Program-made: the position numbers and the translations under genes
Notes under the pieces: generated by a model
The model's input: only the letters and a program-made list of their open reading frames with translations
The model's database searches: none
Told to the model about the DNA's origin: nothing
Part shown: piece after piece, positions 6,286 to 57,124 of the stretch
Layout: each line of letters begins with the position of its first letter
Numbering within the stretch: position 1 is the stretch's first letter
Assembly (NCBI GenBank): GCA_963927785.1
Contig: CAWVBZ010000001.1
Span: 67,783-131,782 of the forward strand
DNA length: 64,000 nt
From: Candidatus Saccharimonadota bacterium
Lineage (GTDB): Bacteria > Patescibacteriota > Saccharimonadia > Saccharimonadales > Saccharimonadaceae
Direction: 5' to 3'

Positions 6286-6378
6286 ACATAGCTTTACTTT
6301 AACCCACCACTCAACTAACGAGGTCGCAGGGTGCCACTACGGGCCCTGCGACCATGCTGGTTCCTTCTCTGGGTAAAT

Positions 6379-6436
6379 CTCTACTTCTATAACTGTGCGG
6401 TTATACTGATGAGCTCCAAAAGGACGAAAAGTAGAG
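6379..6436 (+). ncRNA. Type III hammerhead ribozyme
   Basis: Stem III CTCTACT/AGTAGAG; UUC cleavage triplet (cut after C6387); stem I TATAAC-(TGTGCG)-GTTATA; core CTGATGA; stem II G(C)TCC-AAAA-GGAC; core GAAA. Confidence 0.85.
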
Positions 6437-6441
6437 CAATA

Positions 6442-6464
6442 CCCGCAGGTGCGGGCTACTTTTT
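6442..6464 (+). terminator. Terminator immediately after the ribozyme
   Basis: CCCGC-AGGT-GCGGG followed by CTACTTTTT. Confidence 0.55.
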
Positions 6465-7872
6465 ATATGCGCAACAAAGAGGGGGAGAGGGATAGGAGGG
6501 CGTATTATAAAATAATAATATTACAATATTGTCAAATAGATTTGTCAAACATGAATGAGGCGGGTGAGTATATTTCACAATAAAATAATATTTTGTCAAA
6601 TATGTCAAATAAAATTGTGGAAAACTGCTTGACAAGATTTTTGCTGACGTCATGGCGTCACTGTCGATTTGATGATCGTTGAGAGTGATGACTATGATGT
6701 CTAGCAGCAGCTCATTGGACCTGCTAAAAGCTGAATTTTTGTAAAATTTCGGCTTTGCCGGTGGAGTCTCAAAAATAATTAAATATTAATTTAGGTGGCC
6801 GATTGTTAAACGGAGCTTGCCCCGTCCGACGGCAATTATTTTTCAAATTATTTTGGCACTCAAATAGGCTGAATGACAGAACGTCCAGAATCGGCAGTTT
6901 TTGGTGGGCTTCATCTGTAAAATAGTCTGTAGCGTCGTAAAAGGTATATTGTGCGACGTCAAGAATTTGACGGAGCCACACCATTCTTTATTACTCTCTA
7001 ACTGCTTAAAATCCAACTGATTTTTGTTGAGCGGTTTTTATTTAAATGTTGAAAAATTCTGGCTTACTCATACCCCCGCCATCGGCGATGTTTGGCGGTC
7101 ATGATTGATATTTGAATGGCGTTCGGTCGTTAATACGCTGGATGTCCCTTGATGGCCCCTCCACCGCTCTGACATCAGATATATAAAATTGTGCGACATT
7201 AAATAATTATTAAAAAGATGAGTATTTATACGTCTAGAAATAGTGCACTTCTGGCTAATATGTTGCTATATTGGCCGTCAGGCTAATTTTTAAAGATGCT
7301 AGCATTTGTCTGGCTGGTTCGTGGCCAGCTCGAACATGCTGAGTCAGCTAGAACTAGTTTGTGTACGACGCTTAAGCGTTTCCAGGCGTGACGATTGTCG
7401 ATCAAATAGCTGGTGACTATCAATATTTAGCGTCTAAATAAAACTGCCAGAATAAATGTAATTGGATATACAAAGTAATTAAATGATCGCTGACGCGGTG
7501 ACTGAAGCGTAGCAGAGTTGTGGCTGCGGTAACGCAATTTTTGACGTAGACCGGATGCGACGATAGGTCCACTCTTTTGACGTCGCAAAATATTAAGCTG
7601 CATTATAGTTGTGAGCTAGCTGGCTTGCTTTTGACGATATTGTTCGACGGCTGTCGGCGACTCTTCCTGCTCTATTCAAATTAAAACACCCACCAACATG
7701 CTTGATGTCGGCGGGTGTAACTATGTGCGGGCTGCTGTCTTCCTTCTCTACTTTCTGGCCTTGCCAATGATTGACAATGCGCGAATAAACACATTCAGTA
7801 GGTCAAGGAATATGCCACGGGCGTTGCTAATGGCGCTTAGCGCCGTCGGTTTGACTACTATTTTGCTTATGC

Positions 7873-7901
7873 TTGACGGCATGACGTTAATACTCTATTA
7901 T
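7873..7901 (+). promoter_or_regulatory. Sigma70 promoter for 7953..8387
   Basis: TTGACG-N17-TATTAT followed by a 5' hairpin ATCACAATGGCA/TGCTATTGTGAT. Confidence 0.6.
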
Positions 7902-7952
7902 GAGGGCGATCACAATGGCATGGTGCTATTGTGATAGGACATTTTACAGGAG

Positions 7953-12421: not shown

Positions 12422-12456
12422 CTCGTTATTTATTATAGCTGCTATGCTTCGTGAAG

Positions 12457-45034: not shown

Positions 45035-45661
45035 GTGATGCTAACAGTCAATTGTCAAAGCAGTATTAAAATCACGGGTAGCCAGACGGTCTATTGTGAC
45101 CCGTTAAAGATTGATGAAGCGCATGATGCCGATGTGATTTTTATTACCCATTCTCACTGGGATCACTTCTCGCCAGAGGATATTACTAAGGTTAAGAAGC
45201 CAGATACGATTATTGTTGTTCCGGCAGATTTAACGGCTAAGGTTATGGAGCTTGGCTTTACTGACGACCAAGTCATTACCGTAGTGCCTAATCAAGAGTT
45301 GATTGTGCGTGGTTTGAATGTAAAGACTGTGCCGGCCTATAACATCGATAAGGATTTTCACCCCAAAGCCAATAACTGGGTTGGCTATGTCGTTAATATT
45401 GACGGTACAATCTATTACGCTATGGGTGATACCGATGCCTTGTCCGAGAACGAGTCAATTGTTTGCGATGTTCTGCTAATCCCTATTGGTGGCACTTATA
45501 CCATGAACGCCGACGAAGCAGCCGTATTTACCAATAAACTAAAGCCAAAGGTTGTAGTGCCGATTCACTATGGCATGGTAGTGGGCAACCAAGCTGATTG
45601 TGATAAATTTGTCAGTTTAGTGGATGGCTCAATTGCAGTTGAACAGAAGATTAAGCTTTAG
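45035..45661 (+). CDS. MBL-fold metallohydrolase
   Basis: ITHSHWDH, FHPK, YAMGDT, PIGGTYTM, VPIHY. Confidence 0.9.
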   Translation: MMLTVNCQSSIKITGSQTVYCDPLKIDEAHDADVIFITHSHWDHFSPEDITKVKKPDTIIVVPADLTAKVMELGFTDDQVITVVPNQELIVRGLNVKTVPAYNIDKDFHPKANNWVGYVVNIDGTIYYAMGDTDALSENESIVCDVLLIPIGGTYTMNADEAAVFTNKLKPKVVVPIHYGMVVGNQADCDKFVSLVDGSIAVEQKIKL

Positions 45662-45664
45662 CTA

Positions 45665-46232
45665 TTGACAATCTGTGATTAATGGTGTATTGTTCAAATA
45701 CTGCTTTGAGAGAGCGAGAGATCTTTACCAACCAACCAAAAATTTGAACTAAGGAGTTGCACGATGTAGCGGTTAACTACACAACCACAGTTTCTAAATT
45801 AAGTATGACCCATGAAGCGCATTCAGTCAGTAAGGAGGCTGTGCAATGTAGCGACTAACCATTAGCACATCGATTAATTAACTTGTTTTTCATCTCCACG
45901 CGTCGCGTGGTTTTCATAATTCAGTCGACAACAACAGACCCTGTACCCTACGTCTTAGGAGGCTGCCTATGAGCAAGAACAAGTCACCCTAGTGTTGCGA
46001 GTCCATCGCCAACTTCTTTTTCAACGCCGGCTGACGCTTCGCGGCCGTGGTCGCCCGTGTGGTGGCCGTTAAGCGAGGCAACCTGCCAAACTTCGATTGA
46101 GTGATACCATAAAGGACATTCTCTCTAAGGAGGTGTTAAGATGATTCGGGCTTCCCCGTAGCATCGCTCTCTCTTCTCTCTCAGCAGTTATATATACATG
46201 GGGTGGCACCCCTCGGGATGCCACCCTTTTTC
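45665..46232 (+). other. Transcription unit containing four SD-led, TAG-terminated micro-ORFs (function unknown)
   Basis: TTGACA-N17-TATTGT promoter; ATGTAG at 45764 and 45846; MSKNKSP* at 45969; MIRASP* at 46141; terminator GGGTGGCA/TGCCACCC-T6. Confidence 0.6.
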
Positions 46233-46281
46233 ATGTCCTGATAAACTCAATTGTTCTTATTGATGCTATAATTTTGGATAA

Positions 46282-46626
46282 ATGGACGAGAAACCAAAAC
46301 CTATTCTAACGGATACGCAGGTTAAGCAGTATCTATCTGATTTGCCAAAATCGGCAATACTAACTTTCGTCTCGTTTATTGTGATGATCGTATTTCCACC
46401 ACTTGGCATTGTGTTAATGGCGCGTTGGAGTAAGTTCGCCAGATTAAAAGTTGTCTCGTATGTGCTGGTGGGATTCCTGGCGGTGTGGTTGTTATTTATT
46501 TGCCAGATGCTGCGGGAGGCGTATATAGGTTCTTCGCCAGCGCCTAGTGCCATGCCGGAGTTAATTACAGAAAATAAACCTATTGAGGTCGACAAATCGT
46601 TGACATCGTCCGAGGGTAATGCGTAA
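46282..46626 (+). CDS. Small membrane protein
   Basis: TM hairpin IVFPPLGIVLMARW. Confidence 0.65.
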   Translation: MDEKPKPILTDTQVKQYLSDLPKSAILTFVSFIVMIVFPPLGIVLMARWSKFARLKVVSYVLVGFLAVWLLFICQMLREAYIGSSPAPSAMPELITENKPIEVDKSLTSSEGNA

Positions 46627-47549
46627 TGGCTGATTTAAAAAATCCATTTGGCAGCTTTAGTGATTATCAATCAGGTCGCCAAACTGTCGTGAAGCCAAAT
46701 GACTTCATTGATGACGCCGGCAACGAGCTGGTCTCGCGAATTAATACGGCATTTAATGGCAGTACGGCCGAGCTTCGCGACCCTGTAAAATATCGGCAGA
46801 CCAGCATTATGGCAATCATCATGTTGGTAATCTTCTGGCCGGCTGGCTTATGTCTTATCCTGCGTCGACGGCGCCAATGGTTGGTTAGTAATAAATTGGC
46901 ACTAGCTATTATGTCATGGGTTTTGTTTTCGACCTTTATGATTTTCTTTATTCTGCCGACGTTTGTCTATGAGACTAATAACGACGATGAGCAGCATGTG
47001 GTTGACCAGCAAGCTGATAAGTTGCGCCAAGAGCACGATTACCTGATTAATGTTGACCAACCTCTAACTGACGAGCATCTAACAGTTGACTGTAATTTAC
47101 AAGTTATCGAGAGGAATAGTGATTACGAAAATTATGACGGTGAATATGATGAGTTGCAATGCGCTCCAGCTATTATCACTGGTATATATGCCCCGACCGA
47201 CCGAACATATTTGACCAGTGATTCTATATTTGGATCGACCAAACTGACTGATGACGAGGACGGCAAATTCACGTTAAGAGTAACTCCCGATATGACAATT
47301 CATAACTATGACTGGGGCAAGTCGTCATTGAATTACGACGACATTGAGTTAGCCTATGGTTCAGATAATAGTATTGATGCCGATCTGCTACTACATGACC
47401 TCGATTTGCCAGGGGCGATAGTGGGCCGTAGATTGACCATCGAGTTTAAACTAACTGACGCCGATAAACAGCTGCTCGAGCAATATCACCAGCGGTATTT
47501 ACAGTACCAACAGTTACGTAGTGATAATGAAGCTCGGCAGTATAGCTAG
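46626..47549 (+). CDS. Membrane-anchored hypothetical protein
   Basis: TM hairpin VIFWPAGLCLILRRRRQW followed by an acidic extracellular domain. Confidence 0.7.
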   Translation: MADLKNPFGSFSDYQSGRQTVVKPNDFIDDAGNELVSRINTAFNGSTAELRDPVKYRQTSIMAIIMLVIFWPAGLCLILRRRRQWLVSNKLALAIMSWVLFSTFMIFFILPTFVYETNNDDEQHVVDQQADKLRQEHDYLINVDQPLTDEHLTVDCNLQVIERNSDYENYDGEYDELQCAPAIITGIYAPTDRTYLTSDSIFGSTKLTDDEDGKFTLRVTPDMTIHNYDWGKSSLNYDDIELAYGSDNSIDADLLLHDLDLPGAIVGRRLTIEFKLTDADKQLLEQYHQRYLQYQQLRSDNEARQYS

Positions 47550-48034: not shown

Positions 48035-48985
48035 ATGGTAAAACGTAAACAAAAAGCTAAGGCATTGACTAATTATTTGAAAGCAGATGGCTCTGTCTGG
48101 CTGATTGTATTGACACTTGCCCTGCTCCCTCCGCTGGGAATTTATTGGGTATATAGGTATCGTCGTCAGTGGCTAAAGCGTTGGATAGTTGTAGCGGCGA
48201 TTGCTGTTTGGTCACTAATTTGGCTGGCGGCGGTGTGCCAGTCAGCTGAGCAATCATCAACTCAGACGCAAACGACTGACAACCAATCCACCGTTGAGCA
48301 ACAGGCTGAGTTGAAGGACGAACAGTCGGCTGAACAAACTGACCAGGCTGAGCAATCTGACGACGCAGATGCTCAGCAACAACCTGCTCAGTCGCAAACC
48401 CAGCCCGAGCAAACCCCGCCATCGGCTGGTCCGATGGATGGCATCACCATTGCTCCAGCCGAGAACGTTCCCTATGATCGTGATGATTATGAACCAGATT
48501 GGGATGTCGGCGCCGGTTGCGACATTCGTTCGCGGGTGTTGTCCAGTTCGTCACAAGTTGCTGTTCAATATGGTGGCAATGGATGCACGGTTAAATATGG
48601 TTCCTGGGTTGACCCATACACTGGGCAAACTTTGACTGGCAATCCTTATCAGGGTGATGGCGCGGGCAATGATTTGGATATTGACCACATTATTCCATTG
48701 AAATATGTTAACGAGCACGGCGGAGCTCATTGGACTGAAGCGCAAAAACGTAGTTACGGCGCTAGTCTGGAGGCCATGAACAATGGTGTCTATATCGCAG
48801 TGTCGGCATCGGAGAATCGCGAGAAAAGCGATAGCGGCCCATCGGAATACTACCCGCCCAACCCAGGCTATCGTTGTGAGTATGCCAAAAAATGGCGCGA
48901 CATTGCCCGGCTATATCATATTTCGCTAACGCAGGCCGACTATAACGTGGTGGCTAGTACCTTGGCTAGTTGCGGAATTAATTAG
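48035..48985 (+). CDS. Membrane-anchored HNH (DUF1524-like) nuclease
   Basis: TM hairpin, Gln/Thr/Pro linker, LDIDHIIPL, ENREKSD, CEYAKKW. Confidence 0.8.
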   Translation: MVKRKQKAKALTNYLKADGSVWLIVLTLALLPPLGIYWVYRYRRQWLKRWIVVAAIAVWSLIWLAAVCQSAEQSSTQTQTTDNQSTVEQQAELKDEQSAEQTDQAEQSDDADAQQQPAQSQTQPEQTPPSAGPMDGITIAPAENVPYDRDDYEPDWDVGAGCDIRSRVLSSSSQVAVQYGGNGCTVKYGSWVDPYTGQTLTGNPYQGDGAGNDLDIDHIIPLKYVNEHGGAHWTEAQKRSYGASLEAMNNGVYIAVSASENREKSDSGPSEYYPPNPGYRCEYAKKWRDIARLYHISLTQADYNVVASTLASCGIN

Positions 48986-49323: not shown

Positions 49324-49528
49324 AAGCTGAATATATTGCGATTAGGTTGACTAGGCGGGTGAACCGTGTTCATTAATGAAGTTGACTGCAAGGCGACTCC
49401 TATGAAAACGTTCAATACGACAATCAAATGTTCCCTGACACTTTAGTTAGTGCCTGCGCTTATATTGTACAATGCTAAAATCCCAATGTGGCAGTGTATA
49501 AATTAATCACATGGCTCATGTGTGAGGA

Positions 49529-50883
49529 GTTCAGCTATACGATTATTTGATACGACTATCAAACTTCCGTTTGTTTAAGAACCTTCGTGTCTTCGTTCAG
49601 CTATACGATTATTTGATACGACTATCAAACTGTGCATTGTTTACCCCGAATCAGCTCACCGTTCAGCTATACGATTATTTGATACGACTATCAAACGCCT
49701 GAGGAAGCCAAAAAACAGCATCATCGGTTCAGATATACGATTATTTGATACGACTATCAAACCGGGCCAATAAAGGTGAGTTTGATGTAGAGTTCAGCTA
49801 TACGATTATTTGATACGACTATCAAACGTTTCTTCCATTATTATCTCCTTTCTGTCTGTTCAGCTATACGATTATTTGATACGACTATCAAACGCATGGC
49901 TGCCGACATCAAGGCGTCTGCAAGTTCAGCTATACGATTATTTGATACGACTATCAAACGGTGGCATATTGGTGGCCGGTGGTATTGCGGTTCAGCTATA
50001 CGATTATTTGATACGACTATCAAACGCTCATCGATGTGTTCGTCGTTAGGTTGGTGTTCAGCTATACGATTATTTGATACGACTATCAAACGTATCCCAT
50101 GGGTTGCCACTGGTTGGCGTAGTTCAGCTATACGATTATTTGATACGACTATCAAACAATCAGCATGTTGCGTTTTTCTGGGCTGTAGTTCAGCTATACG
50201 ATTATTTGATACGACTATCAAACTGCTTGCTGGCTTATCTCTCCAGCTACCAGGTTCAGCTATACGATTATTTGATACGACTATCAAACGCACCCGTCGT
50301 TGATTGGGCGAACATATCCGTTCAGCTATACGATTATTTGATACGACTATCAAACCCGTAGCAATAACGTAAAGTAAAAAATACATGTTCAGCTATACGA
50401 TTATTTGATACGACTATCAAACCGGTGGTATGCTCTCTATCCTATCTATCAGTTCAGCTATACGATTATTTGATACGACTATCAAACGGCGCCAGCCCTT
50501 AGCATAGCGTCCTGTAGGTTCAGCTATACGATTATTTGATACGACTATCAAACACGATTAAGGAAGCAAGGGAGATCGTCGATGTTCAGCTATACGATTA
50601 TTTGATACGACTATCAAACGTCATGACTAGAGTATATGACGGATGGGTCTGTTCAGCTATACGATTATTTGATACGACTATCAAACGATTGCGGATAGTA
50701 TACCGCAAACGATTGAGTTCAGCTATACGATTATTTGATACGACTATCAAACGGTATGCCGGGCACATTCCTGTTTCGCGCAGTTCAGCTATACGATTAT
50801 TTGATACGACTATCAAACCGAATAACCGCCACCGTCCAATTTAATCGGTTCAGCTATACGATTATTTGATACGACTATCAAAC
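49529..50883 (-). CRISPR. Type II-A CRISPR array: 21 repeats (GTTTGATAGTCGTATCAAATAATCGTATAGCTGAAC), 20 spacers of 29-31 nt
   Basis: 36-nt repeats with about 66-nt period; one variant repeat at 49727 (C>A at 49733); orientation from GTTT start, leader and cas genes. Confidence 0.98.
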
Positions 50884-50974
50884 CTCAAATTGGCTTGAGC
50901 GTATTTTGTGCAGTCTACGACAATGACCGCAAAACACGTATAACCTACTGCTGCTATCTTATCATAAAATGTCC
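50884..50974 (-). promoter_or_regulatory. CRISPR leader ending in ATTTGAG
   Basis: CTCAAAT at 50884-50890 reads ATTTGAG on the minus strand next to the first repeat, a known type II-A leader-end class. Confidence 0.85.
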
Positions 50975-51643
50975 TTATATCTCGCACAGATCAGCGTCGA
51001 CAATAATCCGGTCACACCCCTCTATTTTTCCATATTGATGACTCTCAATTAGCATAATATCCAGCTGATGATTATCAATATTGCCGATTAGTCTAGCCAT
51101 TTCTCCGTCCAATAAAACAGTACGTAAATTAATAAAGATGAATAATTTAATGCCAGCTAGCTCGGTCATCATGGACATATAATCGGTCAGTAAATCGACA
51201 AAGTTATCTTCGTCGTCGACAATGTGCAGGTTAACGGCCTTGGCAATACTATCAATGGCAAACTCGTCGTTGGCAGACACTTCGAATGTGAATTCCTCGG
51301 CATCCACTACTCTATCTAGATATTGAATAATGCGAGATTTAAATTCGTTTGTCTCCATGTATAACTCGTCAGACAAGGACTGTTTGACGAGTAGCTTTAG
51401 TAAAGTTGTCATAGCGCGTCGGTTATTAAAGTCTAATTTTAGAGGGTTGTAGATAACATCGACATCTTTAGCGAAATTGACTGGCTTACCAGCGTCGGTG
51501 AAATGAAATGGCGCTGCATCAATATCAGATAACCCTCGCAAAATGTTGCGCAAGAATAGCGGCGATTCAATAACTAGTTCATTTAAGTGATTGTTCTCAG
51601 CCCAATCAAGGTGACGTTTTAATTCGGTGTGGGTGAATTTCAT
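50975..51643 (-). CDS. csn2: CRISPR-associated Csn2 (short form)
   Basis: 222 aa; follows cas2; LFIFINLR and IIVDADLCEI termini typical of Csn2. Confidence 0.9.
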   Translation of the reverse strand: MKFTHTELKRHLDWAENNHLNELVIESPLFLRNILRGLSDIDAAPFHFTDAGKPVNFAKDVDVIYNPLKLDFNNRRAMTTLLKLLVKQSLSDELYMETNEFKSRIIQYLDRVVDAEEFTFEVSANDEFAIDSIAKAVNLHIVDDEDNFVDLLTDYMSMMTELAGIKLFIFINLRTVLLDGEMARLIGNIDNHQLDIMLIESHQYGKIEGCDRIIVDADLCEI

Positions 51644-51960
51644 AGTATGATCATCCTATTGTCATTTTGTATATAGGTGTCATCCAATTCGCCTACGACG
51701 ATTTTGATGCTGGCAAATTGCCGTTCAGTAACACTCATAACTTGCACTATTCCCTCCGGCGGCTTGTGCTTCTCGATTCGGTCGCAGGCCTGATCGACCG
51801 CGTGCATGTTGATACAAATTTTAGCGTAAATCGACTCCTGCATCATGGTAAATCCGTCATCGATTAGATATTTGCGAAAATTCCGATAGTGCTTCCGCTG
51901 AGCCGATGTTTCGGTGGGCAAATCAAACATAACCATCACACGCATAAATCTATAGCTCAT
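51640..51960 (-). CDS. cas2: CRISPR-associated Cas2
   Basis: MSYRFMRVMVMFDLP...FRKYLIDDGFTMMQESIYAK. Confidence 0.97.
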   Translation of the reverse strand: MSYRFMRVMVMFDLPTETSAQRKHYRNFRKYLIDDGFTMMQESIYAKICINMHAVDQACDRIEKHKPPEGIVQVMSVTERQFASIKIVVGELDDTYIQNDNRMIIL

Positions 51961-52825
51961 ACCAATCCATTATTTTAGTAGTATCTTTATCCTCGATAGC
52001 ATTAAATACACTGCGAACGTATATACCAATGGCATTGTTTAAATATTGCTCGGAGTTGTTTATCTTAACTCTTGAATTCAATAAATCTAACACTGCAGCT
52101 TTTTCGTCTTTGGCAAATTCTATGTAATGGCAGTTGTATGTAAATAGATCTACAATCGGACGAAACGTTTCCATCAGATCAGAACCTAAATTGAATGGGT
52201 TGCTGGCGTTGTCGTGCCATAGCCCCAGCTGCGTTAAATAGCCATTGGCGGCGATTTCACGATTAAAACATGACAACAAGACTGTGTAGCCATAATTTAA
52301 TACGGCATTGCGAATGTCGGCACTATTGCGATAAAAATCCATGCCAAATAAAGTGTTGAAATAGACTTTGGCGGAGTGTCCCTCGCGGTTAGTTGTGTCA
52401 CCCGGTTGAACTTCGTTGGTAAATTGATCCAATTGGGCGGCACGGTCTGGCTGGCCGATTTTGCGTAGTACGCTAGCCTGGTTCTGAATTTTCCGTCTAG
52501 TGATCGACTGCCAGACTAGTGCTTTAATCTCGTCACTCCATTTGATTTGCGATCGTATCTTACCAGAACTAATATAGTGACCATATAATGGTGTCAATTC
52601 AGCTGTTGGGTTGTGCTTGTTGTCGCAGAAAATAATTTTGATTTTGCGAGCGGCAATCTCGGCAAGCAAGTAAGCCGTCAAAGATATGGCTGTGGTGGCG
52701 CACATGATGACGGATATATCATCAAGAAATATTCGCTTTTCGTCTTCGCCATCACGAATAACGATCGAGCCAAGTTTGTAATCTAGCTTACATCGTTTCT
52801 GGATATACACCACCCGCCAGGACAT
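51950..52825 (-). CDS. cas1: CRISPR-associated Cas1 (type II)
   Basis: MSWRVVYI, TNREGHSAKVYF, NAVLNYGY, GLWHDN, NLGSDLMETFRP. Confidence 0.97.
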   Translation of the reverse strand: MSWRVVYIQKRCKLDYKLGSIVIRDGEDEKRIFLDDISVIMCATTAISLTAYLLAEIAARKIKIIFCDNKHNPTAELTPLYGHYISSGKIRSQIKWSDEIKALVWQSITRRKIQNQASVLRKIGQPDRAAQLDQFTNEVQPGDTTNREGHSAKVYFNTLFGMDFYRNSADIRNAVLNYGYTVLLSCFNREIAANGYLTQLGLWHDNASNPFNLGSDLMETFRPIVDLFTYNCHYIEFAKDEKAAVLDLLNSRVKINNSEQYLNNAIGIYVRSVFNAIEDKDTTKIMDWYEL

Positions 52826-52835
52826 CTGCTGCTCG

Positions 52836-55800
52836 CTATATTTTTACTTCACCTGGCTGAACAGTTTTTAGATCGATTACTTTTTCGTATAAGCCGGCGG
52901 TTGACTGGAGAACGAGCTTAATGCTGCTGTAATTTGATATATTGCTTGCAGCCGTGCACCCACCTAATTGTTGTGCTCTTGGGACGAATTTAGATAAATC
53001 GCCGTGACTGGCATTGCAACCGACTATATCAAGAATAGTCTGTATTGATTTGCATTGATCTTCTAATGACAACTGACTGAATTCATTTGTATAGCTAGAG
53101 AGCTCGTAAATTCTGCTGCCAAACTTTGGCGCATCTTTGAATATTTTTAATCGGCTGGTCAATGTTTGGAATAAGTCAATATTTCCATCCTTAGCTATTT
53201 CATCTTTTTTGGTAATATCGTATTTCTTGTCGTTAAGTTTAGTTGCCGTTGAGCATACTCTCTTTAGATATGGAATGCTGTCGATCGGTAGATAAAGTTG
53301 TTTTGCTGGATAGAATGAAAGTTGATCGCCTGTTCTACCAGTCAAATGAACTGGGAAGCCGTTGACGACCAGTTTGGACATGTAATCAATGCGTGGAATT
53401 ATTACCTTGGCTCCGGCATAGGTTCTGGCTATATATTGGTTGACATGGCTTTCCTCTAGGATTGGAATGGAGACGAGCTTGCGTGTTCCATTAGGCAGCT
53501 CGATAAGCGTGAAGTAGGCACCCATAGCGCTGTTGTAGCCACCATACTTAGAGGTGTCTTGCAGTCGGCTATCTTTTTTGCGTGGGATATAGTTATCGGC
53601 TTTTCGAACTAATTGAGCATCCATCAGCCCCCCGCCCTTGCTACTTAGCCGGTGATGCATGCGTGTCCACACGACATCATTGCGTTTCATAGTGTTGCAA
53701 ACTGTCTTCAGACTTTCGGCGAAGTTCCATGCCTTAACGATTGGGTATTTAGTTGTATTGCCATCTTTCTTGGTGTAAATTTCGCTATCGCGGAAAATTA
53801 GCTCAGTCCTAATGGTGTAGTTTTGTCTCCCCTCGTCGTCTCTCTCCTTGATCCATCGGTACGGATTGTCAGTAAAGGTGGAATTAATGACATTGCCGGC
53901 AACAATGTTCAGATAGGCGTCCTTGGCGTGGTGGGTGTCGTTTAGTTCACGAACTTTGATGAACTCGGGGTGAATAGGGTTGCTGTTATATCCATAGTAT
54001 TTGCGAATGCCGGAGGCCAGGTTGGCTTTGACGGTAATGACCTTGGTATCTTTTAGATGTTCCTGCAGTAATTCACCAATTGCCTTGGTCGACTGCCCCG
54101 TTTCCACTAACTGTCTGGAAATAAATCCTGCTAATTCGTCAGGCGTTAACGGTTGTGTCCTCGTCAGGCGCTCGTACTTTTCCTTGGTGATTAAACCGCT
54201 GCGGTACCAATAACTCCACACCTTGTGCATGCGATCCTGAATGTCGGAGCTGATGGGATACGTATTGGTTTTCTCACGGTTCTTCTCTGCCTTTACTAAA
54301 ACGAGATTTCTGGTAATGCTGTCGTCCTTAGTCTTGGAACGTGGGTAAATATGATCAATATCGTATAGCTGAGTGTTGTTAATCTCCTCGATGTTGATGC
54401 GTTCGCCAGTGTAAGCGCACTTGCCCATTTGCTGGAAGTAAAGGAATAGCTTCTTTGATTGCAGGTCGCGATCGTCTTTGCTTTCGAGTGCGTCAATAAG
54501 ATCGTTGATCTCCTTATCCTCGCCTTTTTTCATTGCATGATACTTATCTAACAAGTCTTTACGGCGAGCGAGCTTAACCTTCTTCTGGCCCTTTTCTTCC
54601 CCGCGTGTCACCTCGATGAAAATTTTAGCTGGATCATGCTCCGTAACTTGGCGAATTTCATTGACGATCTTGATGGCTTGCCAGACGGTTCGCTTGACGG
54701 CTGGTGAGCAATACAGGTTTTGGACTTGATCGTAGGTTAATTCTTCGTTTTCATTGTCGGCGTGAGCTTTATTGACTTTGTCTAGCTCGTCCTTAAAGCC
54801 GAACTCGCCACCCAGCAGCTCCATTAAGTTGTGCGGAGTCTCCCATAGTGCATCCATAATTGTCATTGATTGGCCATCAACGTCGGTACGAACGCCATAT
54901 AGAAAGTCGGCGCTAAATTGTCCCCAGTCACTGTACTTTAACTTGGACAAACGATTGGCTTGCTCGTCTGTGCAATTTAACTCTTCTTTAACTTTAGTTG
55001 CTAGCATCTTGGGCTCGTTATTCAGAATCGTGATAAGTTCAGCGATCTTGTCTAGCTGTTGGACTGAGTACTGTTTATTGTAATCGGGGCCTAGGATGCG
55101 ATAGAAATCCATGTGCGTAGATAGCTTTGGCAGAGTCTTGGCTTCGGCGCTGCCACCTAGCTCGTCGGTCTTGCTAATCATGTCGACTGAGCGCATGTAG
55201 GCCTCAAGTTTATGCAGAGTAACGTTGCCGCCCAACTCGCCGCCTAAGTAGGCTTGATTGTAGATCTGTTGCTTGAGATCGTTGTCAATGCGATGACCAT
55301 TGATTTTTAAATTGTTCAGCTCGTTTAAAACCATGTATTTTTGATAGGATAGCGAACATTTCGGCAATGTTGATGCACCGACTACATAGGTGCATTCGTT
55401 TTTCATTCGTTCGATGAATCTGCTAGCTCGCTGACCAAGGTCTACTAGCTCTGTATAATTCCACGGGTAAACAACTTGGTTAATAGCCTCGCCCCAAGCG
55501 AACTTATTGTTGTTGTCGGTTGCTGATGCCATTGGGCCACAATAGTATGGAATCCTGAATGAGTGAATCGCCTCAATCTTCTTGGCTTTAGTGTTATAGG
55601 ACGGACTCTCATTGGGGTTTTCAATAGCAAAGCTTGGATAATCCTGGCACAGCTTTCGTAGGATCAATGCAAGTTCATTATGGTGTATTTGCTGAGGAAT
55701 TGTTCCCTTTGCATAGCCGCGTTGCTTGGGAAGTAGTTTGCGCCCTTTCGCTCTTTGCAATAAGTCGCCGGTAATGCCATTCTTCTCAAATAACCTTTCT

Positions 55801-57014
55801 AGCTCTTTGTTTAAGTCCTCCTGGTTGACGTTATATGCCTTGCCTTTGGCGCTAGATCCCTTGCTGATATAGGCGTTATAAAATACATCCTTGTCACTGG
55901 TAGCTTCAGTAGTATTAAAGAAATGCTTGTAATCATCGGCAAACGGCTTCAGAGCTGCCTTGATTTTAGCCAAATCTTGTTTGTGCTGGTCATAATTATG
56001 AACCATGGCGGCAGAGATGCTGTCATTGCCAGCCAGTAAGTCGTCTAGGTAGATGTAGTCATAGATTGATTTGGCTGCAAGAATCAGATCCATGCCCCTG
56101 TCAACATCTGAGATGTAGGCGTCAATTTCTGATGCTTTATCCTCAAAATTGTCGCCAGAAAAGTCCAATGATAGCTTATCGTCGGCTTCAATGCCGAACA
56201 TTCTGTCTAGGCCAACTTTGCCACCACATAATAGATTGGCCAATAATTTGTAGTCGCCACCAAACACTTCGTCGTCAACTGGGTTGTCCTCGTCAAAGAT
56301 AATTGCAGTTAGTTGCTTGCGTTTGTCTATCTTGCTAATTTTTTGCTTTAGCAAATTCTCAACCTCGACCATCTTGCCCATATCGATATTGATGCCGCAA
56401 GTCTGGGCGGAGTCGCATAAATTGTTCCATAGTTCGGTAAAATCACCGGCACCGCTCTGGATTTCGCCGCTACGTAGGAAATGGCCACGGTGCTTAATAA
56501 TGTGCTCAATAGCCAGGTAATAATGACGAATATCAAAATGAATGTCTGGATTGTTGACTGCCTCAATGATAGCTTTGCGTAAATGCCATATGGTCGGATA
56601 CTCTTTGCGATAATCAGCGTCGTTGTATCCTGGATCGTTAAACAAGATGTATTTGGTTCGGGCAGACTCGTTGCTAAAGCCTCGCTTGTCCTCCTCCAGA
56701 AACAGACTTTCCCGTAAGCGGATATAAAAGTCGGGGTCAACCTTAGCCATTTCCCGGCTGAATAAACTCTGCAATAATTTGATGCGTTTTTTAGATCGAG
56801 CTAAACGTCGTCTAGTGGAACGGTAGCCACGTCGCTCAGCGGCAGTGCTGGCTTCGTCGAACAGTCGCATACCCCATAGAGTTTTGCCACGACGTCGTAG
56901 TAAGTGATATTGTTCGTCGGTGACGGCCCATCCAACAGAGTTTGTGCCGCAGTCTAGACCGATATAGTACTTGTCAAAGTTCGCATCATTATTCATCTTG
57001 TATTTATTATACAT
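52836..57014 (-). CDS. cas9: Cas9 endonuclease, type II-A, catalytic residues intact
   Basis: RuvC-I GLDCGTNSVGWAV, Arg-rich bridge helix, RuvC-II IFIEVTR, HNH DIDHIYP...NLVLV...N, RuvC-III HHAKDAYL; start may be ATG 56996. Confidence 0.98.
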   Translation of the reverse strand: MYNKYKMNNDANFDKYYIGLDCGTNSVGWAVTDEQYHLLRRRGKTLWGMRLFDEASTAAERRGYRSTRRRLARSKKRIKLLQSLFSREMAKVDPDFYIRLRESLFLEEDKRGFSNESARTKYILFNDPGYNDADYRKEYPTIWHLRKAIIEAVNNPDIHFDIRHYYLAIEHIIKHRGHFLRSGEIQSGAGDFTELWNNLCDSAQTCGINIDMGKMVEVENLLKQKISKIDKRKQLTAIIFDEDNPVDDEVFGGDYKLLANLLCGGKVGLDRMFGIEADDKLSLDFSGDNFEDKASEIDAYISDVDRGMDLILAAKSIYDYIYLDDLLAGNDSISAAMVHNYDQHKQDLAKIKAALKPFADDYKHFFNTTEATSDKDVFYNAYISKGSSAKGKAYNVNQEDLNKELERLFEKNGITGDLLQRAKGRKLLPKQRGYAKGTIPQQIHHNELALILRKLCQDYPSFAIENPNESPSYNTKAKKIEAIHSFRIPYYCGPMASATDNNNKFAWGEAINQVVYPWNYTELVDLGQRASRFIERMKNECTYVVGASTLPKCSLSYQKYMVLNELNNLKINGHRIDNDLKQQIYNQAYLGGELGGNVTLHKLEAYMRSVDMISKTDELGGSAEAKTLPKLSTHMDFYRILGPDYNKQYSVQQLDKIAELITILNNEPKMLATKVKEELNCTDEQANRLSKLKYSDWGQFSADFLYGVRTDVDGQSMTIMDALWETPHNLMELLGGEFGFKDELDKVNKAHADNENEELTYDQVQNLYCSPAVKRTVWQAIKIVNEIRQVTEHDPAKIFIEVTRGEEKGQKKVKLARRKDLLDKYHAMKKGEDKEINDLIDALESKDDRDLQSKKLFLYFQQMGKCAYTGERINIEEINNTQLYDIDHIYPRSKTKDDSITRNLVLVKAEKNREKTNTYPISSDIQDRMHKVWSYWYRSGLITKEKYERLTRTQPLTPDELAGFISRQLVETGQSTKAIGELLQEHLKDTKVITVKANLASGIRKYYGYNSNPIHPEFIKVRELNDTHHAKDAYLNIVAGNVINSTFTDNPYRWIKERDDEGRQNYTIRTELIFRDSEIYTKKDGNTTKYPIVKAWNFAESLKTVCNTMKRNDVVWTRMHHRLSSKGGGLMDAQLVRKADNYIPRKKDSRLQDTSKYGGYNSAMGAYFTLIELPNGTRKLVSIPILEESHVNQYIARTYAGAKVIIPRIDYMSKLVVNGFPVHLTGRTGDQLSFYPAKQLYLPIDSIPYLKRVCSTATKLNDKKYDITKKDEIAKDGNIDLFQTLTSRLKIFKDAPKFGSRIYELSSYTNEFSQLSLEDQCKSIQTILDIVGCNASHGDLSKFVPRAQQLGGCTAASNISNYSSIKLVLQSTAGLYEKVIDLKTVQPGEVKI

Positions 57015-57032
57015 TATTAGTATAATCAGGAT

Positions 57033-57124
57033 AGTTCAACTATACGAACGATACGACAAGTTCAAATAAGCGTTCACTTTATGTGAATTAGCGAAATCAT
57101 AGCGGCATTGTGCCGCATTTTTTG
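57033..57124 (+). ncRNA. tracrRNA
   Basis: Promoter TTGTAT-N17-TATAAT (56998-57026); anti-repeat GTTCAACTATACGAACGATACGACAAGTTCAAAT followed by AAG; hairpins and GCGGCA/TGCCGC plus U-tract. Confidence 0.88.

Follow-up and report, generated by a model that had tools for sequence, protein, structure and literature searches.

Regulation by ribosomes on very short open reading frames (ORFs) is known in several forms. Ribosome-dependent attenuators include the tiny leader ORFs of the erm, cat, and ABC-F resistance genes, for example, the 6-residue MsrDL. The bar minigenes of phage lambda are Shine-Dalgarno (SD)-led ORFs of two or three codons that act through their translation, by peptidyl-tRNA drop-off, and not through a peptide; the effect appears when peptidyl-tRNA hydrolase is limiting. 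In Escherichia coli, start-stops such as those of yecJ and hslR bind ribosomes in toeprints and in retapamulin ribosome profiling (Ribo-seq), and they modulate expression without a product (Meydan et al., bioRxiv 10.1101/520783). Arrest peptides of the RAG/P and RAPP-like kinds include SecM (FxxxxWIxxxxGIRAGP), the Mannheimia SecM (HAPIRGSP), and ApdA/ApdP (PMC10951299, PMC12526060, PMC12992588). All SecM homologues share an invariant Ile, Arg, and Pro, and mutations of the Arg and Pro relieve arrest most (PMC10951299). The 8-residue Mannheimia peptide, with Ser before Pro, suffices for arrest (PMC12526060), and RAPP-like cores reportedly need an adjacent N-terminal region (PMC12992588). A ribosome held on a strong SD also shields Bacillus subtilis RNA from RNase J1, and in decay systems of the Gram-positive type it blocks 5' exonuclease attack (PMC5737220). 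Here we describe a locus with parts of these kinds, located at about 45700-46237 on the plus strand of a 64,000-nucleotide (nt) stretch (the window) of contig CAWVBZ010000001.1, positions 67,783 to 131,782, from a Candidatus Saccharimonadota bacterium.

The locus is best explained as an RNA gene of about 540 nt that stands alone, is restricted to one clade, a small group of chicken-gut Saccharibacteria, and is presumably transcribed from its own promoter. Judged from its sequence, the RNA probably works by catching or holding ribosomes rather than by making protein. The reading that we favour, tentatively and with less than even confidence, is a stand-alone, clade-specific riboregulator that would depend on ribosome occupancy, with putative ribosome binding and stalling on four modules. 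The layout of the element is as follows.

45665-45693, plus strand: sigma-70-type promoter, with TTGACA at 45665-45670, a 17 nt spacer, and TATTGT at 45688-45693 (10/12 match).
45750-45769, plus strand: unit 1, with SD1 TAAGGAG at 45750-45756, 7 nt, and the start-stop ATGTAG at 45764-45769.
45831-45851, plus strand: unit 2, with SD2 TAAGGAGG at 45831-45838, 7 nt, and the start-stop ATGTAG at 45846-45851.
45896-45914, plus strand: T1, an internal 6-bp G+C-rich hairpin CCACGCGTCGCGTGG at 45896-45910 followed by UUUU, terminator-like in a pattern scan.
45956-45992, plus strand: unit 3, with SD3 TAGGAGG at 45956-45962, 6 nt, and ORF3 (ATG to TAG, 45969-45992), reading MSKNKSP-stop.
46126-46161, plus strand: unit 4, with SD4 TAAGGAGG at 46126-46133, 7 nt, and ORF4 (ATG to TAG, 46141-46161), reading MIRASP-stop.
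46200-46231 (feature to 46237), plus strand: T2, a strong terminal hairpin GGGGTGGCA..TGCCACCC followed by TTTTT, found in all computed folds.

The letters of the window agree base for base with the description in an earlier note on this DNA, and the four SD-micro-ORF units which that note had placed between a consensus promoter and a strong terminator were all re-derived. The promoter begins four bases 3' of the stop codon of an MBL-fold hydrolase gene (45035-45661), and the 5' end of the RNA is predicted near 45700. T2 was missed by the terminator pattern scan and was identified from the folds. As read from the letters, both hairpins have a U-tract on the plus strand, and neither has one on the minus strand.

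The density of SD-led micro-ORFs is not a product of chance, as follows from the clustering of TAAGGAG, the duplex energies, and the behaviour of shuffled sequences. TAAGGAG occurs three times on the plus strand of the 64 kb, always within the element. SD/anti-SD duplex energies for SD1-SD4 are -8.6, -12.1, -10.2, and -13.3 kcal/mol, and the strongest gene SD of the window reaches -12.0 kcal/mol; SD2 and SD4 equal or exceed every gene SD there. All four AGGAG motifs of the element have an ATG 4-10 nt on that opens an ORF no longer than 7 codons, versus 4% of AGGAG motifs in shuffles. Both start-stops (45750-45769 and 45831-45851) are invariant in the 8 orthologues described below and in four further sequencing runs, and no host ORF surrounds either site.

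These sites stand in a genome in which SD-led and leaderless initiation appear to coexist. About 20-28 of 55 genes in the window (about 40-50%) are SD-led, and about 15 of 57 (about a quarter) look leaderless: they have no SD, and a -10-like TANNNT box ends 6-10 nt upstream of their start codon. The statement that core genes here mostly lack an SD was thus half right: a leaderless class exists, and close to half of the genes do have an SD. Leaderless-type starts include those of cas9 and of a gene for a 114-residue protein (46282-46626); examples lie at 46264-46284, at 12422-12440 on the minus strand, and at 57015-57035 on the minus strand.

Comparative evidence comes from the orthologous loci L083-L090 and L093-L098, retrieved by protein look-ups in related metagenome contigs. 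Eight distinct region sequences were aligned, and the four further runs added haplotypes to this comparison. The RNA segments diverge from the window by 0.5-8%. Flanking coding sequences diverge by 2-10% overall and by 8-37% at their synonymous sites, and for two further spacers at these loci, also intergenic, the figure is 10-24%. RNA divergence lies 3-10 times below that of synonymous sites or neutral-like spacers in all lineages of the comparison, L089 as the most distant among them. Since the RNA is as slow as non-synonymous sites, purifying selection across all 540 nt is indicated. Within the RNA, 61 of 533 positions vary, and the 42 SD and ATG bases contain no variable site, compared with 12.3% elsewhere (P about 0.004). 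The -35 hexamer is invariant in the 8 sequences. The -10 hexamer is TATTGT or, toward consensus, TATTAT, and variable bases lie in the spacer and downstream of the -10.

Of the SD-ATG-TAG pattern, the first two parts are kept in all of these relatives, and the third is not always kept as TAG. In ORF4, the 20 other nucleotides are invariant, and the stop is TAA instead of TAG in L089, L090, and L093. In ORF3, L089 alone has TCG in place of TAG and reads on to 21 codons (MSKNKSPSRCESIINFFFNAG, then a stop), and the in-frame TGA after ORF3 is TAA in L083. These positions act as stops, as the TAG/TAA exchange in ORF4 and the TGA/TAA exchange downstream in the ORF3 frame indicate. A special role of amber is not supported: TAG terminates 24 of the 57 genes in the window (42%). 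Pro is the last residue in 0 of 57 window genes, yet both peptide micro-ORFs (ORF3 and ORF4) end in Ser-Pro-stop.

These endings bear on a trans-acting trap or sensor that would titrate or report 30S or 70S ribosomes, release factor 1 (RF1), or Pro-tRNA and elongation factor P (EF-P), an account that we regard as quite unlikely. It would explain why four of the strongest ribosome-binding sites of the window stand together, why start-stops and Pro-stop endings recur, why ORF4 carries an I-R-A-S-P core (PMC10951299), why three of the four micro-ORF stops read UAG-C, and why no SD-led gene lies downstream to be regulated. RF1 specificity fails, however, because ORF4 ends in UAA in three related sequences; this change disfavours an RF1-specific device, and UAG is an ordinary stop in the window. 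A sponge would also require near-ribosome abundance, and no output domain was identified. A more elaborate proposal of the same family, which we consider unlikely, is a free-standing, trans-acting RNA whose modules would park ribosomes on start-stops and on a minimal SecM-like I-R-A-S-P-stop hexapeptide, thereby sensing or buffering translation capacity or termination and Pro-tRNA status without a useful product, in a bacterium with many apparently leaderless genes. If this were true, a RAG/P-type arrest core could work without any N-terminal region.

The modules are related to each other. The claim that the first two units are diverged repeats was upheld by an alignment z-score against shuffles of 3.9 for module 1 versus 2, and the paralogy extends to module 3, with the same value for module 2 versus 3. 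Modules 1 and 2 have TAAGGAG..ATGTAGCG..TAAC in common, and modules 2 and 3 have ATTCAGTC..AGGAGGCTG..ATG..CATCG..AACTTNTTTTTCA. The start-stop ATG-T-AGC aligns to ATG-AGC of ORF3, such that a single extra T creates the TAG. Modules 1-3 are thus tandem paralogues, and the RNA is best read as built of three or four tandemly duplicated modules. This paralogy suggests that the RNA grew by tandem duplication of a small SD-ORF unit, with ORFs that shrank and ribosome-binding sites that were kept.

Such a history invites the view that the modules are functionless remnants of tandemly duplicated small genes, and that the low divergence stems from recombination, a recent sweep, or DNA-level constraint. 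The paralogous modules, the extra T that turns ATG-AGC into ATG-TAG-C, the longer ORF3 kept in L089, and the very narrow distribution are all compatible with decay, as is recombination at the locus. In L087 (754-1374), the RNA region is 99% identical to the window, and the flanking genes for the hydrolase, the 114-residue protein, and a 307-residue protein are L083-type alleles (91-95%); this mosaic points to homologous recombination among these lineages. Decay is nevertheless disfavoured because the whole region is constrained: divergence is reduced in every lineage including L089, the bases of the ribosome-binding sites are more constrained than the rest, and the promoter hexamers are conserved. 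The suggestion of decayed small genes consequently stands for the shared ancestry of the modules and the 21-codon ORF3, and not for the rate of evolution; as an explanation of the present element we find it improbable.

No reading frame accounts for the conservation. Two minus-strand ORFs were rejected: that at 46069-46224 is broken by an indel in L089 and by one in L090, and that at 45989-46081 shows substitutions without third-position bias. On the plus strand, a 17-codon ORF from 45805 fails through a 1-nt deletion in L094 and L096. Amber read-through peptides, proposed earlier, do not fit either. The read-through frame of ORF1 is interrupted by a 1-nt deletion at 45783 in three lineages, and changes past the TAG of ORF3 are mostly non-synonymous, with codon 9 going from Cys to Arg. 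Searches with the ORF3 read-through product and the other readings returned no protein homologue. Uninterrupted small proteins at the orthologous loci, which would have made the units simple pseudogenes, were not encountered: only L089 extends ORF3, and all other lineages stop at codon 8.

A polycistronic messenger RNA (mRNA) for very small peptides, namely the hexapeptide, the heptapeptide, and the 21-residue L089 form of ORF3, is accordingly given little probability. Optimal ribosome-binding sites, the 21 codons of ORF3 in L089, and a synonymous TCA to TCG change in ORF3 speak for it, as does the resemblance of the MSKNK start to the MSKIK tag (PMC10192921). Against this, two units encode formylmethionine alone, ORF3 ends at codon 8 outside L089 and is followed by the Cys to Arg change at codon 9, no reading has a homologue, and conservation spans the whole 540 nt and not the ORFs alone. 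The TCA to TCG change is, moreover, one half of the covarying pair 45986/45993 (A-U, G-U, G-C), so RNA structure accounts for it at least as well as coding does. As a separate observation, the first codons of ORF3 (45969-45983, M-S-K-N-K) are A-rich and close to the MSKIK tag, which raises expression in E. coli as an N-terminal fusion (PMC10192921) and whose effect on arrest peptides has been questioned (PMC11190716). The likeness may be a coincidence or a generally favourable initiation context.

With a conserved promoter, plus-strand terminator hairpins, and no conserved ORF on either strand, the element looks like a discrete transcription unit. T1 is a possible internal terminator, and its use would yield an RNA of about 215 nt. 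As the interval from the hydrolase stop to T1 contains no terminator, the region could also be the 3' untranslated region of the hydrolase mRNA. Downstream, the next gene (46282-46626), which encodes the 114-residue protein with two transmembrane segments, starts 120 nt past ORF4 and beyond T2. Its start is preceded by the following feature.

46264-46284, plus strand: extended -10 box TGCTATAAT, 9 nt before the ATG (46282) of the 114-residue protein gene; leaderless-type, without an SD, the -10 being invariant in 8 sequences.

Because of this box, the downstream gene seems to be served by a separate promoter, and treating the RNA as a distinct unit is the best reading. The T2 stem is invariant. 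All seven other sequences have C within the U-tract (UUUCUUC, UCUUUUC, UCUUUCU), and their termination may be leaky. Read-through into the promoter of the genes for the 114- and 307-residue proteins, and interference with it, are possible in view of these interruptions.

In the favoured riboregulator, the selected activity would be ribosome loading and a brief dwell, not the peptide. A 70S ribosome on a start-stop, kept in place by a very strong SD, would immediately meet a stop codon in its A site. At ORF3 and ORF4, termination after Pro (Ser-Pro-stop) would be slow, and ORF4 would add its SecM-type I-R-A-S-P core. A ribosome on a module would open the anti-SD helix of that module and, on ORF4, also the start of a helix that closes the 5' and 3' ends. 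Occupancy would in this manner determine how the RNA folds, how stable it is, and which of its single-stranded parts are accessible; the fold and lifetime of the RNA would then report ribosome availability or stalling. Candidate outputs are the decay or length of the RNA itself (T1 versus T2), interference with the adjacent leaderless operon for the 114- and 307-residue proteins, and a target in trans.

The helices invoked by this scheme come from predicted folds. Compared with shuffles, the minimum free energy (MFE) has a z-score of -4.8 on the plus strand and -3.2 on the minus strand. The parts of the predicted fold are listed below.

45708-45721, plus strand: 5' (GA)n arm, predicted partner of the 3' (CU)n arm at 46164-46182, closing the RNA in MFE and alignment folds.
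45727-45742, plus strand: CA-rich leader (ACCA)3AAAA before SD1, unpaired in all folds, with one ACCA fewer in L089.
45750-45781, plus strand: module 1, with SD1, ATGTAG, and a local hairpin UGUAG/CUACA (45765-45769 with 45777-45781).
45786-45795, plus strand: CACAGUUUCU, predicted anti-SD partner of SD2; single changes in L089 and L083 each disrupt one pair.
45831-45868, plus strand: module 2, with SD2, ATGTAG, and, as judged by eye from the letters, a hairpin whose stem (45841-45848 with 45860-45868) contains the AUG.
45880-45892, plus strand: U-rich element copy 1, AACUUGUUUUUCA, whose predicted partner is the SD1 region when the RNA ends at T1 and codons 2-6 of ORF3 when it is full-length.
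45956-45992, plus strand: module 3, with SD3 and ORF3, involved in the covarying pair 45986/45993.
46011-46023, plus strand: U-rich element copy 2, AACUUCUUUUUCA, predicted anti-SD partner of SD1 in the full-length RNA.
46036-46079, plus strand: G+C-rich two-tier hairpin; five substitutions in 8 sequences, all pair-preserving (for example, G-U to A-U or C-G to U-G).
46119-46166, plus strand: module 4, with anti-SD UUCU at 46119-46122, SD4, ORF4, and CAUC(G) at 46162-46166 pairing with the start GAUG.
46164-46182, plus strand: 3' (CU)n arm UCGCUCUCUCUUCUCUCUC, also a potential anti-SD-like seed.

Substitutions in the relatives bear on several of these helices. In the module 1 hairpin, L096 has A>G at 45779 and at 45781, which retain pairing as G-U, and changes at 45771 and 45774 fall in the loop. 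In the module 2 hairpin, 45867 A>G gives U-G and 45858 A>G lies in the loop. All folds contain T1, whether ribosome masks are applied or not; 45901 C>U turns one of its pairs into U-G, and its loop contains 45902 G>A. The nine pairs that AACUUCUUUUUCA forms with AAGGAGUUG are all invariant in the 8 sequences. The hairpin at 46036-46079 has a single disruptive change, 46075 G>A, in run X13 only. In module 4, U>C at 46119 and 46122 in L090 and L089 turns G-U into G-C, assuming a hand pairing of UUCU with GGAG. One-arm indels in the (GA)n/(CU)n helix (L094, L089) can be absorbed by a register slip and provide no compensatory proof. Support is local, covering the start-stop hairpins, T1, the 46036-46079 hairpin, and the anti-SD4 stem, whose changes among the 8 sequences all keep pairing, and the global fold should be taken as a prediction. 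An antiterminator proposed by eye, pairing 46061-46066 with the 3' arm of T2, was rejected because 46065 G>A contradicts it.

The heptamer UUUUCAU occurs three times in the element: before T1 (45887-45893), after T1 (45911-45917), and after T2 (46228-46234). A related UUUUUCA (46017-46023), inside the extended frame of ORF3, makes a fourth occurrence. These repeats may have been left behind when the modules were duplicated, or they may serve as a binding motif.

The same folds would suit a base-pairing small RNA with a target in trans or in cis, which its CU-rich or single-stranded parts (such as the 3' (CU)n stretch as an anti-SD seed) would contact, with the SD-AUG pairs as by-products of purine/pyrimidine helices. 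We take this to be a clearly unlikely origin of the pattern. Every SD has a predicted pyrimidine-rich partner, start codons are predicted in stems, modules 1 and 2 are mutually complementary in predicted folds, the folding z-score is strong, and a promoter and a terminator without a long ORF are the usual layout of small RNAs. Helices, however, need neither an ATG 6-7 nt past all four SDs nor a stop within 7 codons, a combination that is rare by chance, and they do not call for SD and ATG to be the least variable bases or for the ORF4 stop to be retained as a stop.

The GGA motifs invite comparison with CsrB and RsmZ, since four A(A)GGAG(G) sites and an AAAGGAC at about 46111-46117 might bind a CsrA-like protein. 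Five GGA motifs in 540 nt of a small-RNA-like transcription unit agree with such a sponge. The GGA density of CsrB and RsmZ is far above that of this RNA, the motifs lie in predicted stems or beside anti-SD partners and not in hairpin loops, and each SD has an ATG at the spacing of a ribosome-binding site, which a protein sponge would not need. A CsrA sponge is very improbable here. The geometry of the ribosome-binding sites and their extra conservation disfavour both the base-pairing RNA and the CsrA sponge.

Several observations weigh against the ribosome-dependent riboregulator itself. In-silico masks of ribosome footprints, applied singly or together, leave T1 and T2 unchanged at the MFE level, and no switch is visible. 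The consensus fold has about 13 pair-preserving versus 7 disruptive changes, a ratio near chance for transitions, and covariation is thin, as only the pair 45986/45993 occurs with three standard pair types. Being paralogous, the modules do not provide four independent observations of a ribosome-binding site. Allele exchange or a sweep, rather than long-term constraint, could partly explain the low divergence, given the L087 recombinant. No regulated partner was identified, and the downstream gene has its own leaderless-type promoter. The ORF4 peptide has only 6 residues and does not have the N-terminal region that RAPP-like cores reportedly need (PMC12992588). Finally, searches for RNA runs holding this organism found none; in runs X19, X25, and X26, coverage is low and even across genes and spacer, a pattern that looks like DNA.

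The distribution of the element is narrow. The sequence is also present in chicken-gut, faecal, and poultry-air metagenomes, and the RNA and the genes for the 114- and 307-residue proteins are restricted to the same clade. The closest species representatives of the flanking hydrolase are Candidatus Saccharibacteria metagenome-assembled genomes (63-64% protein identity). Beside the MBL gene in Saccharibacteria genomes of this kind with 63-67% protein identity (L003, L004, L091), no similarity to the element was found. The motif TAAGGAG-N7/8-ATGTAGCGNNTAAC was absent from viral contigs and had a single chance match, within a coding region, in JGI metagenomes, and blastn against phage and plasmid collections gave no match. 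Rfam 15 returned no match at gathering thresholds for the whole window, and the element itself produced only chance-level matches (E = 2.6 and 4.4). ARAGORN reported no tRNA or tmRNA, and no paper on Saccharibacteria small RNAs turned up in the library searched. Another part of the window, 6286-7952, contains about 1.6 kb without an ORF of at least 90 residues on either strand and without an Rfam match.

The neighbouring genes gave no functional hint in Pfam, NCBIfam, or PADLOC, and the downstream gene is not a recognisable resistance gene. The 114-residue protein and a 316-residue protein (48035-48985) share an N-terminal two-transmembrane module, PPLGI...W...R (BLASTP E = 3e-5), and the latter has a weak HNH/GmrSD_C-like C-terminal part. 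By eye, the 307-residue protein (46626-47549) has a similar two-transmembrane segment; these are clade-specific membrane proteins. A type II-A CRISPR-Cas system lies on the minus strand 3-11 kb downstream (csn2 50975-51643, cas2 51640-51960, cas1 51950-52825, cas9 52836-57014), with an array at 49528-50907 of at least 21 repeats of the 36-nt unit GTTCAGCTATACGATTATTTGATACGACTATCAAAC. In L094, L096, and L097, cas2-cas1-cas9 without csn2 directly follow the gene for the 307-residue protein, which indicates a variable defence locus. A tracrRNA was rejected as an identity for the element, as no stretch of 45601-46300 matches the 36-nt repeat over more than 7 nt and no anti-repeat is present.

Set beside the described systems, the element has parts of known kinds, namely start-stops, arrest-type micro-ORFs, and SD stabilisers, and their assembly into a stand-alone, selected four-module RNA has no known counterpart. 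Its start-stops have an SD-like sequence, an AUG, and an immediate stop in common with those of E. coli. The latter sit inside or upstream of the host gene that they tune, whereas here no host ORF exists, and two start-stops follow one another in a stand-alone RNA that also has two other micro-ORFs. The attenuator-like layout of a strong ribosome-binding site, a very short ORF, and an intrinsic terminator tens of nucleotides on appears twice (ORF2-T1 and ORF4-T2). With ribosome footprints masked, no alternative antiterminator fold emerged at the MFE level, and T1 and T2 persisted in all constrained folds. The lambda bar minigenes differ from this RNA in organism and context and have no sequence similarity to it. 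As with the STAB-SD of Bacillus (PMC5737220; Agaisse and Lereclus 1996, cited there), a very strong 5' SD could block 5'-to-3' decay here too, and the long-range 5'/3' pairing of the hbs mRNA resembles the pairing predicted in this RNA. The Bacillus element protects a downstream coding mRNA, whereas here four sites stand with nothing long downstream.

The closest sequence likeness concerns ORF4. The resemblance of IRASP to the SecM arrest tail, pointed out in the earlier note, is borne out by the Ile, Arg, and Pro that are invariant in SecM homologues (PMC10951299) and by the Ser found in HAPIRGSP (PMC12526060). MIRASP has the Ile/Arg/Pro spacing of SecM, with Ala after Arg as in E. coli and Ser before Pro as in Mannheimia. 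Compared with the C-terminal R-(A/G)-(P/G)-P core, in which the Arg is irreplaceable and the Pro is decoded in the A site, its Arg, Ala, and Pro fit; the third-position Ser is natural in HAPIRGSP and is not among the variants of PMC12992588. ORF4 differs from the RAG/P peptides in that it has six residues, with only Met-Ile before the core and Pro as the last sense codon. Those peptides precede a regulated gene, and ORF4 has no downstream Sec/YidC-type gene or masked SD. The likeness to SecM is better treated as a lead than as membership.

These comparisons give the locus its interest. The organism belongs to the ultra-small, host-dependent Saccharibacteria, a group with hardly any described regulatory RNA. 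Should the region prove silent, it would still be strongly constrained non-coding DNA. If ribosomes do sit there, it offers a natural test bed for start-stops, for a minimal (six-residue) SecM-type core, and for the coexistence of SD-led and leaderless initiation. Known regulatory micro-ORFs, start-stops, and arrest peptides serve mRNAs in which they control a downstream gene, whereas in this RNA such devices are multiplied without an apparent gene to control.

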